A stretch of DNA of 64,000 nucleotides from Candidatus Brennerbacteria bacterium RIFOXYC1_FULL_41_11 (GTDB taxonomy: Bacteria; Patescibacteriota; Minisyncoccia; UBA6257; Brennerbacteraceae). The position numbers and the translations under genes are program-made. The DNA is taken from contig MHHX01000019.1 of the NCBI GenBank assembly GCA_001817215.1, positions 16,302 to 80,301 on the forward strand. Direction: 5' to 3'. The notes below the pieces were generated by a model that ran no database searches, was not told where the DNA came from, and was given only the letters and a program-made list of their open reading frames with translations. Each line of letters starts with the position of its first letter. The stretch's first letter is position 1. Positions 5,419-32,579 of the stretch are shown here, in pieces.

Positions 5419-5778
5419 ATGAAAAAAGTTATTATTGTTGAAGATGATAACGCCATGGGCAACGTTTTAGCGGCCAGAATTAGGAACGAAGGATTTGAAA
5501 CCATCCACGTCCTGAACGGTGAGAAGGCCTTGTCCCAATTGAAGCAATCGCCGTTTGACTTGATGATTCTTGATTTGATTATGCCAAAGCTTGATGGCGT
5601 GGCTCTTTTGGAGAAGATGTCGCAGGACGGTTTTAAGATTCCGGTCATTATCGTCTCAAATTTGTCCCAGGATACAGACCGCAGTCGTGTGGCAAAATAC
5701 AACGTGATTCAATTCTTTTCGAAGTCCGATATCACCGTCGCCGAGATAGTCGGTTTTGTAAAAAACTTTTTGGCTTAA
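5419..5778 (+). CDS. Single-domain response regulator (CheY-like receiver only)
   Basis: MKKVIIVEDD...DLMILDLIMPKLDG...; receiver-domain acidic pocket and conserved K; no output domain; ATG at 5419 checked in sequence. Confidence 0.8.
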   Translation: MKKVIIVEDDNAMGNVLAARIRNEGFETIHVLNGEKALSQLKQSPFDLMILDLIMPKLDGVALLEKMSQDGFKIPVIIVSNLSQDTDRSRVAKYNVIQFFSKSDITVAEIVGFVKNFLA

Positions 5779-25031: not shown

Positions 25032-25069
25032 TGAATACAAACGTCTTATTTCTTCGCAAAAAATACACC

Positions 25070-25100
25070 AAAACACGTCCCGCTAAGCGGGACGTGTTTT
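25070..25100. terminator. Bidirectional intrinsic terminator after secY
   Basis: AAAACACGTCCCGC-taag-GCGGGACGTGTTTT, perfect 13-bp stem flanked by A/T runs on both sides. Confidence 0.8.
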
Positions 25101-25126
25101 GACACAGCAAGGATATTTTTCGTAAT

Positions 25127-25528
25127 TTATTTTTCGTCGATAAGATCATCAATTTTCTCTGTCATGAAATCAAGAGCTTTTTTCATTTTCTCTAAATCCG
25201 TCCCCTTTGTTTTTATTTCTTCCTCTAATTGTCTGGTTTCCTGAATAAGTTCAACTGCTGTTCTGAAACTTAATCTCCCCGGGTCTGGCGAGACAGTGCT
25301 TATCAATTCCGGAATTAATTTATCATCTAGATCATCCAATGCCTCAGAACCAATATTTTCCCTTTCTTTTTCTAACCCGAGCCTCCACTCAGTCAGTTCC
25401 TCAATAAGGTTCTGATTACTTTCTTTTAATATTGCACCAAGACCTATCTGGGCCCATTCGATAGATGCAACCCTCGATCTTATTTCTTCAGCTATTGCGT
25501 GAAACTGTCTTAGTTTTGGTTCGGTCAT
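25127..25528 (-). CDS. Hypothetical acidic coiled-coil protein
   Basis: 133 aa, E/K/L-rich heptad character; no recognised motifs. Confidence 0.4.
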   Translation of the reverse strand: MTEPKLRQFHAIAEEIRSRVASIEWAQIGLGAILKESNQNLIEELTEWRLGLEKERENIGSEALDDLDDKLIPELISTVSPDPGRLSFRTAVELIQETRQLEEEIKTKGTDLEKMKKALDFMTEKIDDLIDEK

Positions 25529-25625
25529 ATTTGTGTTTAATTTTCTGTATTCTCCCTCTCTTTTAAGTGATTGTCAAATTTGATTCCGCGATTTAAACGT
25601 GCTTTAATTATAAACGGAGGCTAGA

Positions 25626-25805
25626 ATGGAATTACAAAAGTTCTTAAGAGGCACAGTGATGATCTTCGCAAGTTTGTTTCTTGCCGGGTTCGTAATTTTT
25701 TTTCTGATGTTTGCACGCGAATCGGAATTAGTGTGGCTCGCCCCGGCGTTCATGACTTTCGTGTTGGGTGGTATATTAACCTATGTTTATCTGCCCTCTT
25801 CGTGA
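25626..25805 (+). CDS. Possible small membrane protein (59 aa)
   Basis: ATG at 25626 preceded by AACGGAGG. Two hydrophobic helices (MIFASLFLAGFVIFFLMF, FMTFVLGGILTYVYL). Below the ORF-track cutoff. Confidence 0.3.
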   Translation: MELQKFLRGTVMIFASLFLAGFVIFFLMFARESELVWLAPAFMTFVLGGILTYVYLPSS

Positions 25806-25931
25806 AGTTCGTGAACTAAGCGAATTTCCATCACGCGTACAAGTCGGCACAATGTGTCGACTTTCGTTTTTATCAAACAAAGATTTTTGATATAATTTGA
25901 TAGCTATTCTTAATTTGAAAATTTGATTATT

Positions 25932-26647: not shown

Positions 26648-27418
26648 ATGGCTATCACGATTAAAACTGAAAAAGAGATCGAGCTGCTTAAGGCCGGGGG
26701 GAAACGCCTGGCTTTAATTCTTGATGAGCTGGCCAAGATGTGTATCACCGGGGTTTCTGGTGACGAGCTTGATAAGCGCGCGGGATATCTAATGGAAAAA
26801 TACAGTTCGCGTTCTGCGTTTTTCAGATATCGGCCGGCTCCGGATTCAAAACCATTTCCGGCGAACATTTGTTTATCCGTTAATCATGTGGCTGTGCACG
26901 GTATTCCTTCAAAGAAAATTATTTTACGCGAAGGTGATGTGGTTAAGGTTGATGCTGGTTTAATTTATGGCGGCATGATTGTTGATTCTGCCGTGACGGT
27001 TGTTGTCGGTAATACCACCGCGAAAGTCAGAAGATTAATTAAAACAACTAAAAAAGCATTGGATCAGGCGATTAAACAGTGTTTGCCCGGGAAAACAATC
27101 GGCGATATTGGTTTTGTGGTTGAAGCGACCGCCAAAAAAAACGGGGTTTTTGTTGTCAAGGATTTGGCTGGACATGGTGTCGGTTACGATGTTCATGAAG
27201 ATCCTTTTGTCATGAATTTTGGCAGAAAAAATTCAGGCGAAAAATTGCGCTCGGGTATGGTTTTGGCATTGGAACCGATTTTGTCTTTGGGGTCAAGCGA
27301 GTCGGTTGAACTTGAAGACGGGAGCATTGCCACTATTGACGGTTCAATCTCGGCGCAGTTTGAGCATACCGTGGTGATTACAGAAAATAAACCGCTCGTG
27401 GTGACGAGATTGGATTAG
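26648..27418 (+). CDS. map: Methionine aminopeptidase, type I
   Basis: ...VNHVAVHGIPS...DVVKVDAG...GHGVGYDVHEDP...LEPIL... metal-ligand motifs. Confidence 0.9.
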   Translation: MAITIKTEKEIELLKAGGKRLALILDELAKMCITGVSGDELDKRAGYLMEKYSSRSAFFRYRPAPDSKPFPANICLSVNHVAVHGIPSKKIILREGDVVKVDAGLIYGGMIVDSAVTVVVGNTTAKVRRLIKTTKKALDQAIKQCLPGKTIGDIGFVVEATAKKNGVFVVKDLAGHGVGYDVHEDPFVMNFGRKNSGEKLRSGMVLALEPILSLGSSESVELEDGSIATIDGSISAQFEHTVVITENKPLVVTRLD

Positions 27419-27776
27419 AATAATTTATTTTTCTATATAGCTTCAAGATTGGAGAATAATAGTCGCTTTGCTTCATTAAAATACACGCGGTGCCTGTCAC
27501 AAAATCTCCTACCGCTATTTTAGTTCGCAAAGCTTTTTTATTTTCACAATCTTTCCGCGAATATTTCAAAACAGATTGTTCTAATCTCGAGTAATTGCTT
27601 GGTGCTGGACCAGGACAGATTCTTGATTTTTATGATAAAGTGTGTTATAATATAGGTATCAGAAGCTAGGCTTCTAGCTTCGAAACCAGCTTTACGGGTT
27701 CAAGCAAACCCGTTGCAGCGCGAGACTTACATCTCAATCTCGCGTCAAGTCCTCAAAAAAAAGAAAGGAGGATGAG

Positions 27777-27977
27777 ATGAAAACATTACCAGACGCCATG
27801 TTCATCATCGGCCAGCTCTGGCTGGTAGATGATGACAAAATTGCTTTTGTCATCCGGCTCATTTCTGCCGGGAATGATTTAAAAGCAATTGAGGGGATTA
27901 TCCGTGAAGCCAGGAAGCTTTCGCGGATCCAGGCTAGTAACCTGGATGCTGTTGAGAATTTTAAGGTGGGTAGATAG
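27777..27977 (+). CDS. Possible small protein (66 aa) with a strong Shine-Dalgarno site inside a long non-coding stretch
   Basis: AAAGGAGGATGAGATG context; upstream extended -10 TGTTATAAT at about 27643-27651. Confidence 0.35.
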   Translation: MKTLPDAMFIIGQLWLVDDDKIAFVIRLISAGNDLKAIEGIIREARKLSRIQASNLDAVENFKVGR

Positions 27978-28221
27978 ATTCTGTAGTCGTGTAGCTCAGC
28001 GACTTTAAAAAATTACGAGTGGAGGGTAATAAGGGTGTGCCTTTATCCAGAGTCTCGGGCTGTTATTTCGCCCCGAGCTTAGCACACTTACCCAAGTTAT
28101 ATGGATATCATATTTTCATTTGTTCGTAGCCGGATGGTTGCGAACAAACAGCGGTCTCGTGTCAAATGGTGCGAGATTTTGCGTTTTAATGCGATTTTCA
28201 TCTGATTTTTATTGATCTTAT

Positions 28222-28257
28222 CGTCAACTATCTTTGCGATCGCGAAGATAGTTGACG
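28222..28257. repeat. Near-perfect 36-nt palindrome centred on GCGATCGC
   Basis: CGTCAACTATCTTTGCGATCGCGAAGATAGTTGACG; 16-nt arms with one T/G wobble position. Confidence 0.7.
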
Positions 28258-28319
28258 CTTAGGTTTTTGTTATAATTAATCTGTATCCTGATCTGTATTT
28301 AGTTTTTGACTTTTAATTT

Positions 28320-28724
28320 TTGGTTATGAATTTATTGGCTGTTGATTTTGGCGAAAAAAACATCGGTTTGGCTTTTTGTGATACAGAAATAAAATTGCCA
28401 TTAAGTCTTGAATCATTGCGAGTTGAGACAGAAGAGCAGGCTTTGCAAGAAATCAGTGAGACGATAAAATCAAGAAATATTGAATTGGCGGTTTTTGGTT
28501 TGCCGTTGAACTTTGAGTTTAAAGAAACAAAGCAGTCTCAAAAAACCAGGGATTTTGCGGCAAAACTTGAAGAAAAACTCGGTGTGAAAATATATTTTAT
28601 TAATGAAGTCTTGAGTTCACTTTTGGCTTCGCGCTTGAAAGAATCAAGTAAAAATACACATTCATCGAGCGCGCTGCTTCTTTTGGAAGATTACTTGGAT
28701 AAGTTAGAAGAACAGGCTAAATAA
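28320..28724 (+). CDS. ruvX: YqgF/RuvX-like putative pre-16S rRNA nuclease (Holliday-junction-resolvase-like)
   Basis: LLAVDFGEKNIGLAF...LAVFGLPLN... pattern typical of YqgF. Confidence 0.6.
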   Translation: MVMNLLAVDFGEKNIGLAFCDTEIKLPLSLESLRVETEEQALQEISETIKSRNIELAVFGLPLNFEFKETKQSQKTRDFAAKLEEKLGVKIYFINEVLSSLLASRLKESSKNTHSSSALLLLEDYLDKLEEQAK

Positions 28725-28800
28725 TTGTTTTTAAGTTTCTCATCTCGGTTTTTTTACTTTTAACTCTTTTCTTTAAATTATAATCTTTGAGCCTTAGCTT

Positions 28801-29562: not shown

Positions 29563-29588
29563 TCTGGCTGAACTTGGTATAATATACT

Positions 29589-30377
29589 ATGGCAAAAATC
29601 TTAGCTTTTAACTGGAAGCTTAACCCGCAAGATAAAAAATTAGCAGATCAGCTTTTTTCTGTTTACGAAAAACAAGCTAAAAATCGGAAAAATTCACGAG
29701 TTATTGTTTGCCCTCCCCTTGAGTTTTTGTTTGGGTTAAGTCAATACCAGTCGCTTGCGAAAAGCCACCACCTTGATTTTGGGGCTCAAGATTGTTTTTG
29801 GGAGAATCTCGGTCCTTTCACCGGTGAGATTTCGGCCTTGAATTTAAAGCAAACCGGTGTCGATTATGTCATCCTTGGGCATTCAGAGCGTCGTATTCAC
29901 CTTGGCGAGACAGATGAGATGATCAATAAAAAAATCATCAACGCGATTGGTTCAGGATTAAAACCAATTTTGTGTATTGGTGAAGGTTTCAAAATTCACG
30001 AAAAAGGCGAAGAAACAGCTAAAAAGTTCTTGAAAAAGCAGCTTGAAGTAAGCCTGAAAAACGTCTCCTCACTTTCAGTTTCCCAGAAAAATCAGTTGAC
30101 TATTACTTATGAACCAATCTGGACTATTAGTAATAACTCCGGAAATGTTGCGGACAATCCTTCCGATGCCGCAGCCATGATTAAGTATTTGAAAGAAATT
30201 CTCGCCATTCGATACTCATTATTGAATATTAAAGTTTTATACGGTGGATCTGTAAACAGTAAGAATGTTGCCGGATTTTTGTCATATAATATTATTGACG
30301 GTTTTTTGATTGGTCGAGCGTCTCTGGATAAAGAAGAAATTAAGAAGATTATTGATGAGACGGAAAAGAGAGGATAG
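29589..30377 (+). CDS. tpiA: Triosephosphate isomerase
   Basis: FNWKLN, ILGHSERR, CIGE, YGGSV motifs. Confidence 0.85.
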   Translation: MAKILAFNWKLNPQDKKLADQLFSVYEKQAKNRKNSRVIVCPPLEFLFGLSQYQSLAKSHHLDFGAQDCFWENLGPFTGEISALNLKQTGVDYVILGHSERRIHLGETDEMINKKIINAIGSGLKPILCIGEGFKIHEKGEETAKKFLKKQLEVSLKNVSSLSVSQKNQLTITYEPIWTISNNSGNVADNPSDAAAMIKYLKEILAIRYSLLNIKVLYGGSVNSKNVAGFLSYNIIDGFLIGRASLDKEEIKKIIDETEKRG

Positions 30378-30458: not shown

Positions 30459-31238
30459 ATGAATACAGAAAAAATCAAAGGTATTTTACTTGCGGCCTTG
30501 GCCACGTCTCTAGTCGTGGCGACAGTTCTCGGTTCGGCAGTTGTGTTAAAACAGCTTGGTGTTTTGAAGCAGCCGACAGTGATTACAATTTCCGGATCGG
30601 GCAAGGAGTCTTATACGCCCGATAAGGCAGAGATTACTTTGTCAGTGATCACCAAGGATAAGGATTCTGGCGTGGCTCAGTCGAAGAATGACGAGAAGAT
30701 GGCAAAGATTGTTAACTATCTTAAAGATTCTGGAGTAAAAGAAGAGGATATACAAACAACTTCTTATAATCTTTACCCGGAATATGAGCAAGGCAAGGGT
30801 TTGGAGCCGTCTTCTCCCGAATACTATTATCCGAATACTTTTAAGATTATTGGCTACACTCTTGATCAGGGTCTGAGCTTTAAAATTAAGGATCTTTCAA
30901 AAGTCGGGACGATCATAGGCGGTTTGTCTGACAAGGGTATTAGCCAGATCGGCGGAGTCTACTTTTCTCTTTCCGATGAAAAGATGGAAGAGTTGAAAAC
31001 AAAGGCTAAAGAAAAAGCCGTAGCCAAGGCTCAGATCGAGCTGGAGAAAACCAAAAATCTTTATGGTTTTAAAAAATCAAAGTTAATAAGTATCAATGAT
31101 TATCCGGTTTATCCCATGCCGATCTATCGTGGCGTTGATGACTTGAAAGTTAGTAGCACGCCTGCCAATGAAGCTTCGATTCAGGTTGGCGAAGGAGAGC
31201 TCGAGGTTCAAGTGAGCTTGGTATATGAGCTTCGATAA
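30459..31238 (+). CDS. Secreted SIMPL/DUF541 (BP26/OMP28-like) protein
   Basis: Signal peptide plus ITISGSGKESYTPDKAEITLSV...EEDIQTTSYNLYPEY..., characteristic of this family. Confidence 0.6.
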   Translation: MNTEKIKGILLAALATSLVVATVLGSAVVLKQLGVLKQPTVITISGSGKESYTPDKAEITLSVITKDKDSGVAQSKNDEKMAKIVNYLKDSGVKEEDIQTTSYNLYPEYEQGKGLEPSSPEYYYPNTFKIIGYTLDQGLSFKIKDLSKVGTIIGGLSDKGISQIGGVYFSLSDEKMEELKTKAKEKAVAKAQIELEKTKNLYGFKKSKLISINDYPVYPMPIYRGVDDLKVSSTPANEASIQVGEGELEVQVSLVYELR

Positions 31239-31391
31239 AATTATCGAAGCGGAATCCTGAGCCTGTTGAAGGGCAAGTTAAAGTAATTTATTTAAATTAC
31301 TTTAATGAAGCCATGTTTAGTCCGGTGAATGTCTATTAAAATGCATAGCAAAACATCTCTTCCAAGAGATGTTTTGCTATAATAAAGTCAA

Positions 31392-32579
31392 ATGCGTAAT
31401 CTACCCAAGCAATCGTTTTTCAAAAATAAACGCGTTTTGGTCCGCGTTGATTTTAATATTGAATTAAAGAACAGAAAGGTTATTGATGATTTTGACATTT
31501 TGCGGGCGTTGAAAACAATCAAATATGTTTCGGGTCGCGCAAAATACACTTTATTGATTAGCCATCTGGGCAATCCTGGCGAAGGAGAAGGATTGAGGTC
31601 TTTGAGGCCAGTCGGTGTTCATCTGTCAGGGCTTTTGAGGAAAAAGGTTTATTTTGTCTTTGACAAGATAAAAGATTTAAAAAACAGCTTGGCGGTTTTG
31701 CCTGAAAATTCCATTGTTCTGCTTGAGAACATCAGGTTTTATTCTGGGGAATACGCTAACGGCCGTTACGTCGATTCTATGTTTTTTGCAAAAGAGCTGG
31801 CAAGTTTGGGCGATTGTTATATTAACGAGGCTTTCGGCGAGTCGCATCGTAGAGTTTCAACAGTTTCTGCGATCACAAATTTTTTGCCGAGCTTTGCCGG
31901 TTTTAACTTTCAAGATGAAATTAAACATCTGGACAAACTGAAAAGCAAACCGCTAAAGCCGCTTGCCCTGATTCTTGGCGGTGCGAAAATGAAAACAAAA
32001 TTGCCCTTGATAAAGAGTTTTATAAAAAAAGCTGATTACATTCTGCTTGGTGGCGCCATTGCCAATACATTTTTGAAAGCTAGGGGTTTTGAGATCGGTA
32101 AGTCTTTGTATGAAAAAAAGTTTGTTAATGAAGCCAAAAAGCTTTTAAAACACAAAAACATTATTTTGCCGACTGATTATATTGTTGCGATGTCATTAAA
32201 AAGTAAGGTTAGCCATGTTTTTAAAACCACTGATCGTCAGTCATCGACCGCTGGTCGTATTCTGGACATTGGCCCTGAGTCATTAAAGCAGTTCAGGGAA
32301 ATTATCAAGTCTGCGCGAACAATTATCTGGAATGGTCCAATGGGATATTATGAAAATCAGGTTTTTGCCAAAAGCACCAAGGCCGTGGCCAAAGAGATTT
32401 TTGTCAATAAAAGAGCTTTCAAAGTCATTGGTGGAGGAGATTCTACCGCGTTTTTGAAAAACTCAAAACTCAAAAATCAAAAATCAAAAATCCCCAATTT
32501 ATTCATTTCCACTGGCGGAGGATCGATGCTGGAGTATTTGGCGGGGAAGAATTTACCCGGGGTTAAAGTGTTGAGCTAA
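31392..32579 (+). CDS. pgk: Phosphoglycerate kinase
   Basis: VLVRVDFNIEL... N-terminus, GGGDS-like and GGGSMLEYL motifs; 395 aa. Confidence 0.85.
   Translation: MRNLPKQSFFKNKRVLVRVDFNIELKNRKVIDDFDILRALKTIKYVSGRAKYTLLISHLGNPGEGEGLRSLRPVGVHLSGLLRKKVYFVFDKIKDLKNSLAVLPENSIVLLENIRFYSGEYANGRYVDSMFFAKELASLGDCYINEAFGESHRRVSTVSAITNFLPSFAGFNFQDEIKHLDKLKSKPLKPLALILGGAKMKTKLPLIKSFIKKADYILLGGAIANTFLKARGFEIGKSLYEKKFVNEAKKLLKHKNIILPTDYIVAMSLKSKVSHVFKTTDRQSSTAGRILDIGPESLKQFREIIKSARTIIWNGPMGYYENQVFAKSTKAVAKEIFVNKRAFKVIGGGDSTAFLKNSKLKNQKSKIPNLFISTGGGSMLEYLAGKNLPGVKVLS

Follow-up and report, generated by a model that had tools for sequence, protein, structure and literature searches.

A lineage-specific, highly structured insertion between map and ruvX in a Candidatus Brennerbacteria genome

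Why do 907 nt (27419-28325) separate map from ruvX at the 3' end of a string of ribosomal-protein genes, secY, adk and map in a groundwater bacterium of the candidate phyla radiation (CPR), and what does this DNA do? The stretch that we analyzed, referred to as the window, is 64 kb long and comes from a Candidatus Brennerbacteria species; it encodes a methionine aminopeptidase (MAP) with 100% identity to that of Candidatus Brennerbacteria bacterium RIFOXYC1_FULL_41_11. An earlier note had described the interval as a 900-bp non-coding block with an extended -10 promoter element at about 27643, three consecutive hairpins, a strong ribosome-binding site (RBS), an open reading frame (ORF) of 66 aa and a palindrome, and had read it as a riboswitch-like or other regulatory RNA, a leader peptide or an operator. 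All of these elements were recovered at the positions given there, but the block is not fully non-coding, as the 66-aa gene is called in public assemblies and has homologues. We favor, with a probability of roughly 0.6, the reading that the block is a lineage-specific composite insertion into the conserved secY-adk-map-ruvX string, consisting of a relocated operon-end hairpin, an acquired cassette of promoter, small gene and terminators, and a new ruvX promoter.

An insertion specific to a Candidatus Brennerbacteria lineage

For comparison, we used the closest available map neighborhoods, in which MAP is either 66-80% identical to that of the window or belongs to the 90% cluster of the 80% relative. 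These represent eight relatives (L004/L084, L085, L086, L087/88, L089, L098, L099, and L100). The gene order secY-adk-map-ruvX-GT2-tpiA is kept in all of them, and map and ruvX lie 8-143 nt apart in every case, compared to 907 nt in the window. The block, including its ORF, is carried by none of the eight. This comparison of gene order and spacing shows that the 907 bp are an insertion specific to a Candidatus Brennerbacteria lineage. Three independent assemblies agree at 100% identity across the block, and the ORF has entries in 58 blocks of the sequence collection, which excludes an assembly artefact. The species appears in many public assemblies, some of them from groundwater. A metagenome scan using ruvX returned a known relative alone. 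In one groundwater assembly from ENA (L003), ruvX is called at only 63 aa (5550-5741), possibly as a frameshift or stop variant, and the 908-bp block upstream of this short call is 100% identical to that of the window.

The left part of the block has a recognizable origin. Using blastn, the segment starting 4 nt behind map was aligned over 163 nt and with 70% identity (E 3e-21) to the spacer that follows secY in the sister species L085, to which L098 is identical. The homologous segment is located between secY and adk in L085, L098, and L099 and not after map. It contains a long hairpin, hairpin X, whose inner stem has the U-run UUUUUUAUUUU (27534-27544) behind its 3' arm. All 34 base pairs of hairpin X are formed in both the window and L085; 10 of them have changed on both sides and none is broken. 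This covariation rests on a two-species alignment, in which slid-register controls give 0-2 such pairs. The G-U pairs of hairpin X fall on the plus strand, and its folding z-score is -5.67. L099 carries a long hairpin at the same post-secY position with homologous flanks and another apex, which indicates that it is the stem structure and not the loop sequence that is conserved; in other relatives, the corresponding post-secY site holds ordinary terminator hairpins. The 19-nt loop was also considered as a conserved binding site and rejected, as its identity (16 of 19 positions) is not clearly above the 70-84% found overall and the L099 apex differs. A covariance model of the hairpin (R1) detected one copy in the window and no further copy there or in 49 other loci beyond the orthologous position, and neither hairpin X nor the sister-species element has a match in Rfam. 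A MITE- or ERIC-like palindromic repeat would have many copies dispersed over the genome, whereas the 64-kb window shows a single one.

The most plausible reading of hairpin X is that of a terminator or 3'-end structure belonging to the upstream operon. Along with about 60 nt of adjacent spacer, it would have been transferred or copied from its place after secY to its present place after map. In the window genome, a second insertion and another, bidirectional terminator are found at the post-secY position. The region of the adk promoter is orthologous to that of L099 (85% identity over 48 nt). We also considered P1, the promoter of the 66-aa gene, and the ruvX promoter as tandem duplicates of the adk promoter; the similarity has no statistical support, and this candidate was dropped. 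A 16-nt direct repeat, identical at 13 of 16 positions, links the last map codons (27407-27422, AGATTGGATTAGAATA) with the start of hairpin X (27446-27461, AGATTGGAGAATAATA) and may represent either a rearrangement microhomology or chance. Between hairpin X and the adk promoter, the sister species carry a second conserved hairpin with an ACGGCGC-NAGC-GCCGT core and an extended stem (L085 317-355, L098 4266-4304, L099 4113-4147), which is absent from the window.

The right part, from about 27620 to 28276, forms a self-contained unit of promoter, leader, gene, 3' untranslated region (UTR), terminators, and ruvX promoter. P1 matches the consensus at 10 of 12 positions and has the additional TG, as found by a promoter scan, which would place the start of transcription near 27658. 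The element TGNTATAAT occurs 13 times in the window compared to 1.6 copies expected, and none of 100 shuffles reached this number. Copies that we checked lie just upstream of adk, the 66-aa ORF, ruvX, tpiA, pgk, tRNA-Pro, and tRNA-Tyr. Because the element is enriched and placed just before genes, it appears to be the usual promoter type of this genome. The start codons of tpiA (ATG 29589) and pgk (ATG 31393) follow their TGNTATAAT elements by just 6-10 nt (29575-29591 and 31375-31395), which suggests that the tpiA and pgk mRNAs are leaderless or nearly so, unlike the mRNA of the 66-aa gene with its 119-nt leader.

Downstream of the gene, the 3' UTR folds with a z-score of -6.47, and none of 200 shuffles was as stable. 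It includes two hairpins flagged by a terminator scan, the second of which is the palindrome (CGTCAAC...GTTGACG). The only imperfection of the palindrome is a U-G wobble in the plus-strand RNA, corresponding to C-A on the other strand. We propose that the palindrome is a second, very stable intrinsic terminator that insulates ruvX. In relatives with map-ruvX spacers of 8-71 nt, a separate ruvX promoter would not fit. The insertion would have both interrupted and re-supplied the transcription of ruvX. The same layout of hairpin followed by promoter recurs before pgk, where a terminator hairpin runs into TGnTATAAT (31340-31383). This second site belongs to a region with two strong hairpins after a SIMPL-domain gene (31240-31383; z-score of -8.7 for 31200-31399), and the stem of the second hairpin (AGCAAAACATCTC...GAGATGTTTTGCT) leads straight into the pgk promoter TGCTATAAT. 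No further copy of the palindrome was found in the window or in viral contigs, and exact-pattern scans of IMG/VR for the hairpin X loop, the palindrome, and one 3' UTR hairpin returned nothing.

The genes flanking the block are secY, adk, map, ruvX, a GT2 gene, tpiA, and pgk. Among the stretches of the window that have no ORF of 100 aa or more, the block is the third longest; tRNA genes are present in both of the longer ones and in the one ranking fourth, so that the block is the largest gap with neither such an ORF nor a tRNA gene. Its GC content (0.43-0.47) is not clearly unlike that of the adjacent genes. No part of the block is repeated elsewhere in the window, with the exception of the promoter motif, and neither tRNA or tmRNA genes (ARAGORN) nor remnants of adk or map (tblastx) were detected in it. 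Between secY and adk (25032-25922), the window has another lineage-specific insertion of about 890 bp, at a place where the relatives have only 58-260 nt. Its orphan ORFs have no match in Pfam, PHROG, PADLOC, or phage databases. The coordinates of all features are listed in the table, in which SD denotes the Shine-Dalgarno sequence and MFE the minimum free energy of folding.

Table. Features of the map-ruvX block, its flanking genes, and the secY-adk insertion (positions in the window)
Feature	Position	Strand	Details
map, type I methionine aminopeptidase, left flank of the insertion	26648-27418	+	Pfam Peptidase_M24, E 8e-42
Segment homologous to sister-species post-secY spacer, now after map	27423-27585	+	blastn against L085 138-298
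Hairpin X	27446-27552	+	107 nt, 34 bp in three helices, apical loop 27492-27510; RNAalifold, pair counts
Putative promoter P1	27623-27651	+	-35 TTGATT 27623-27628, 17-nt spacer, TG-extended -10 TGTTATAAT 27643-27651
Predicted 5' UTR	27657-27776	+	about 119 nt; MFE -40 kcal/mol, z -3.96
Leader hairpin H1	27662-27681	+	8 bp, GCUU loop
Leader hairpin H2	27694-27713	+	7 bp
Leader hairpin H3	27718-27745	+	8 bp
Weak anti-SD:SD hairpin (predicted)	27749-27773	+	GUCCUC 27749-27754 upstream of SD
SD AAAGGAGG	27764-27771	+	
66-aa protein gene	27777-27977	+	homologues, AlphaFold2 fold, public gene calls
Predicted 3' UTR	27978-28262	+	285 nt, about six hairpins including 27985-28004, 28024-28093, 28119-28148; MFE -102 kcal/mol
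First terminator-like hairpin	28153-28190	+	hairpin 28153-28178, 11 pairs, then UUUUGCGUUUUA; terminator scan
36-nt palindrome centered on GCGATCGC	28222-28257	+	16-bp stem, 7 GC pairs, 4-nt loop, then CUUAGGUUUUUG; terminator scan
Putative ruvX promoter TGTTATAAT	28268-28276	+	on inserted DNA, right after the palindrome
ruvX, right flank of the insertion	28326-28724	+	Pfam RuvX, E 9e-28; ATG 28326 is the start used in relatives
Bidirectional terminator in secY-adk insertion (putative)	25069-25101		
Orphan 133-aa ORF in secY-adk insertion	25127-25528	-	
Orphan 59-aa ORF in secY-adk insertion	25626-25805		hydrophobic

The 66-aa gene and its mobile family

A word-indexed protein search with the 66-aa ORF returned self-matches only. 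An exhaustive HMMER search identified the 71-aa protein P0123, which is 47% identical over the full length, and six repeats of the 876-aa surface protein P0122, and a profile search added P0124 and P0125. Together with the window protein, designated ORF66, the homologues P0123, P0124, and P0125 form a family of four, in which the three are 44-50% identical to ORF66 over the full length. The four sequences align without frameshift and share 27 invariant columns, all of which are kept in ORF66. Among the three non-CPR members, P0123, P0124, and P0125, dN/dS is 0.10-0.22. Judging from these alignments, the 66-aa ORF is a real gene of a family under purifying selection.

The homologues of ORF66 lie in mobile DNA, namely a phage contig and an integron-type cassette array, and on an uninformative 1-kb contig (P0125). 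The phage contig with P0123 encodes TerS, TerL, a GH25 lysin, and, adjacent to P0123, a MerR/excisionase-like protein, and is also present in IMG/VR. A variant of this contig (L092, 6036-7439) carries a group II intron-type reverse transcriptase (RVT_1 and GIIM) two genes downstream of P0123; L090 and L093 lack this insert but are collinear with L092 in other respects. P0124 is one cassette of an array on a Logan contig (SRR32929652; L095, 1-4172) with six attC-like 3' ends (CCGTTAGGC, GTTGGGC or GTTAGCC) at 781, 1580, 2845, 3387, 3766, and 4128 and with matching RYYYAAC 5' boxes. On each side of the cassette lies a folded site of about 120 nt; GCCTAAC and GTTAGGC are examples of the boxes in this array. 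The cassettes beside P0124 include two N6/N4 DNA methyltransferases, and the 5' motif of these attC-like sites also occurs in two IMG/VR contigs. The regions upstream of the homologues are short and unrelated to the leader of ORF66. Phage and plasmid databases gave no match at the DNA or protein level.

Modeling with AlphaFold2 on the four-sequence alignment predicts a three-helix bundle with a pLDDT of 88. The top Foldseek neighbors are the Z and B domains of protein A, which are non-significant matches, and the PDB sequence search and Foldseek returned generic three-helix bundles only (E>0.08). The repeats of P0122, on the other hand, are Pfam GA modules. Six of them are matched by phmmer with an E-value of 1.4e-7, and hhalign of the family against seven P0122 GA repeats resulted in a probability of 94.9% (E 4e-8), with the motif DK-AF--R----A-------I--EAR common to both. 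The Pfam GA model itself matches neither ORF66 nor its homologues. These models and alignments predict that the ORF66 product is a stand-alone three-helix bundle related to GA modules and, by analogy to such modules, would bind another protein. The protein looks soluble and contains no transmembrane stretch. A type I toxin-antitoxin mRNA was considered and rejected, as there is no hydrophobic membrane peptide and the sole promoter-like site on the minus strand of the scanned region is weak (9/12) and located far upstream of the ORF (27569-27540).

A composite insertion and its rivals

If the block is a composite insertion, its parts could work together as follows. The left ~165 nt would be a copy of the post-secY spacer, in which the 34-bp hairpin and its U-run close the adk-map transcript as an intrinsic terminator or 3'-end stabilizer. 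The right ~650 nt would be a self-contained, moron-like expression cassette that was probably acquired horizontally, with the strong TG-extended P1 starting an mRNA of about 610 nt. A hairpin close to the 5' end protects bacterial mRNAs from 5'-end-dependent decay, and H1, located 4-5 nt from the predicted 5' end, may protect the leader in this way together with the two hairpins behind it. The consensus SD, weakly masked by the upstream CCUC, would drive translation of the GA-module-like 66-aa protein, and a pair of terminators, of which the palindrome is the second, would close the hairpin-rich 3' UTR. As ruvX was separated from map by the insertion, its transcription would start from the new TGTTATAAT promoter that abuts the terminator.

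Several observations weigh against this reading or restrict how far it can be taken. The species is clonal across samples: the MAP variants in the 90% cluster of the window differ by no more than 1-2 residues and thus represent essentially one strain, and the three loci that were compared do not differ in the block, so that they offer no variation in the leader, the 3' UTR, or the palindrome on which selection would show. The borders of the block show no prophage, integrase, attC site, or target-site duplication, and the 44-50% identity of the homologues is too low to name a donor or a direction of transfer. The family has no matches in Pfam, PHROG, or PADLOC. The U-tract of the palindrome begins 6 nt past the perfect stem, with CUUAGG in between, which is suboptimal for a canonical intrinsic terminator. 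In addition, the extreme structure inside the coding region exceeds the need of a plain mRNA, and something beyond a stable mRNA may be acting on it.

This structure within the coding region is the sole surprising element of the block. In 200-nt windows over 27400-28400, z-scores range from -3 to -6.5, whereas the flanking genes mostly stay between about -1.5 and +1.5; the degree of structure in the block far exceeds chance. The coding region of the 66-aa gene reaches a z-score of -4.98 against dinucleotide shuffles. Its mRNA is more stable than all 300 permutations of its own synonymous codons (z -4.1) and all 300 recodings with host codon usage (z -5.3), whereas the synonymous-permutation score is -0.45 +/- 1.06 for chunks of host genes and -1.4 to -2.0 for the three homologues. 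The strongest hairpin in the ORF (27802-27835) is built from residues unique to the ORF66 copy (II...DDD). Most of the inverted repeats of the ORF are perfect, and the minus strand gives equal scores; the constraint could therefore act on RNA or on DNA, and the scores do not separate these levels.

A possible explanation of this excess is that the ~610-nt transcript with its 14 hairpins is a dual-function RNA, which is regulatory itself, with loops acting on other RNAs or proteins, and also encodes the small protein. This would account for structure that spans the whole transcript including the ORF, at a level that neither host genes nor homologues approach and partly through residues specific to ORF66, and for long UTRs in a genome in which at least two checked genes, tpiA and pgk, start 6-10 nt past the -10 element. 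However, we found neither a recurring loop motif nor an obvious target complementarity, the mostly perfect Watson-Crick hairpins of the ORF give no strand-specific RNA signal, the RNA is not conserved among the relatives, and Rfam has no match. Searches of both strands gave no relevant hit at E<=10 (27000-28800 and 27400-27700) and none at the gathering threshold window-wide. We consider a dual-function RNA unlikely. Its bolder form, in which the acquired mRNA was reshaped within this lineage into a densely folded new dual-function RNA of about 14 hairpins with structure selected within codons, is quite unlikely; if true, the RNA would have a role of its own in regulation, as a decoy, or in phage protection besides encoding a three-helix protein. 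The leader alone could also act as a translational switch, i.e., a thermosensor or a ligand- or protein-responsive element, since H3 would not form while its loop and 3' arm (27727-27741) are paired with the SD-AUG region (27768-27782). This 15-nt complementarity pairs at 13 of 15 positions including one G-U, and CCUC (27751-27754) masks the SD. Indeed, the SD core is predicted to be paired with GUCCUC, with an unpaired probability of about 0 in the ensemble, so the RBS described as strong is strong as a sequence motif, but its accessibility is not assured. Against a switch, the MFE structure is favored over the alternative fold by 6.4 kcal/mol, the 6-bp SD hairpin with its 13-nt loop is weak and of a kind common by chance, there is no known aptamer, and the short, unrelated upstream regions of the homologues offer no homologous leader for covariation. 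The lack of a U-tract after H1, H2, or H3 argues that these hairpins are not attenuators. Some translational control by the leader is thus possible from the folding models, but as an account of the locus a switch is improbable.

The palindrome might be a DNA operator on which a dimeric regulator, possibly the 66-aa protein itself, controls the ruvX promoter. It ends 10 nt before the TG of the extended -10 element and has TTGACG in its right arm, and tri-helical bundles can be DNA-binding. However, this TTGACG is merely 13 nt from the -10 hexamer, too close for a -35 element, and the perfect 16-bp arms are much longer than the half-sites expected of operators. The wobble restricted to the plus-strand RNA, the T-run that follows, the terminator-like scan result, and the recurrence of the layout at 31340-31383 speak against an operator as well. 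There is no second copy in the window and no adjacent helix-turn-helix (HTH) regulator, and the best structural matches of the protein are Z-domain/GA-type bundles and not HTH proteins, its homologues being acidic by charged-residue count. We regard an operator as very improbable. It has also to be asked whether the block is decaying debris, i.e., a non-functional remnant of a tandem duplication or rearrangement together with a dead acquired fragment, in which the hairpins are leftover inverted repeats. The block is lineage-specific, its left part is clearly a rearranged ancestral spacer, a second ~890-bp insertion with orphan ORFs lies nearby between secY and adk, and the clonal population holds no variation that could demonstrate constraint. 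Debris would, however, hardly keep an intact ORF with all 27 family-invariant residues, a consensus promoter, and a consensus SD, nor would ruvX depend on a promoter at its right end, and the excess of structure is far beyond background; this explanation is therefore quite improbable. A leader peptide fares no better: the product is a predicted three-helix domain of 66 aa from a family under purifying selection, and about 285 nt, two predicted terminators, and a promoter lie between the gene and ruvX, leaving no regulated operon. The earlier note had held that a missing Rfam hit, missing conservation, and absence of the ORF from close relatives would speak against its interpretation. Since all three were found, the reading as a riboswitch or other known cis-regulatory RNA falls, while the promoter, the structured leader, and the small protein gene that it was built on are genuine. 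An sRNA, like a dual-function RNA, keeps a small probability.

Under the composite reading, the locus would demonstrate that one of the most conserved gene strings of a streamlined CPR genome can take up a small foreign expression cassette and that the transcription broken by the insertion can be repaired with terminators and a new ruvX promoter. It would also reveal a tiny, previously unnamed family of GA-module-like bundles in a phage, an integron cassette, and a CPR chromosome, which is a candidate protein-binding accessory factor, and, in hairpin X, an operon-end hairpin with clear compensatory evolution. The block is real but fairly ordinary, and does not overturn current understanding.

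Comparison with known systems

Morons are independent transcription units with their own promoter and terminator that spread horizontally (PMC3594210). Like a phage moron, the block is extra DNA relative to the relatives, has its own predicted promoter and terminators, and contains one small gene, the closest relatives of which are found in mobile DNA. Unlike a moron, it lies in a bacterial ribosomal-protein neighborhood with no phage genes among the flanking genes examined, its GC content is not clearly distinct, and its UTRs are unusually long and structured. Because it is not located in a prophage, we call the right part moron-like and not a moron. Hairpin X, the hairpin at 28153-28178, and the palindrome resemble intrinsic terminators, including bidirectional ones with A-tract and U-tract, in that stable stems are followed by T-runs at the ends of units, and the packing of terminator and promoter is also seen after secY and before pgk. 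They differ in the size of hairpin X, which at 34 bp and 107 nt greatly exceeds a typical terminator and has a U-run able to pair with an A-rich arm upstream, and in the 6-nt gap between the stem of the palindrome and its U-tract.

RNAIII/hld of S. aureus and SgrS/SgrT are dual-function RNAs. As in RNAIII, the predicted window transcript is several hundred nt long, has many hairpins, and encodes a small protein between long UTRs; unlike RNAIII, it has no evidence of base-pairing targets, conserved C-rich loops, or RNA homologues. The predicted fold of ORF66 is shared with three-helix bundles of Gram-positive surface proteins, namely the GA module (PF01468), the B/Z domain of protein A, and FIVAR-type bundles. 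The members of the ORF66 family are, however, stand-alone proteins of 66-73 aa without signal peptide, LPXTG anchor, or repeats, their N-terminal helix (TLP-AM--G--WL) is specific to the family, and nothing points to binding of albumin or immunoglobulin by ORF66.

The attC sites of integron cassettes consist of R''/L'' and L'/R' boxes (RYYYAAC...GTTRRRY) in an imperfect palindrome of 57-141 nt with extrahelical bases. The window copy of the gene differs from a cassette, as it has its own promoter and neither attC nor a nearby integrase, and the perfect 36-nt palindrome has no R/L boxes or extrahelical bases. Its homologue P0124, in contrast, is flanked by attC-like sites of the form GGCTAAC...GTTAGCC in folded imperfect palindromes of about 120 nt. 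Being a cassette bounded by such sites, P0124 argues that the ORF66 family travels as a small mobile gene.

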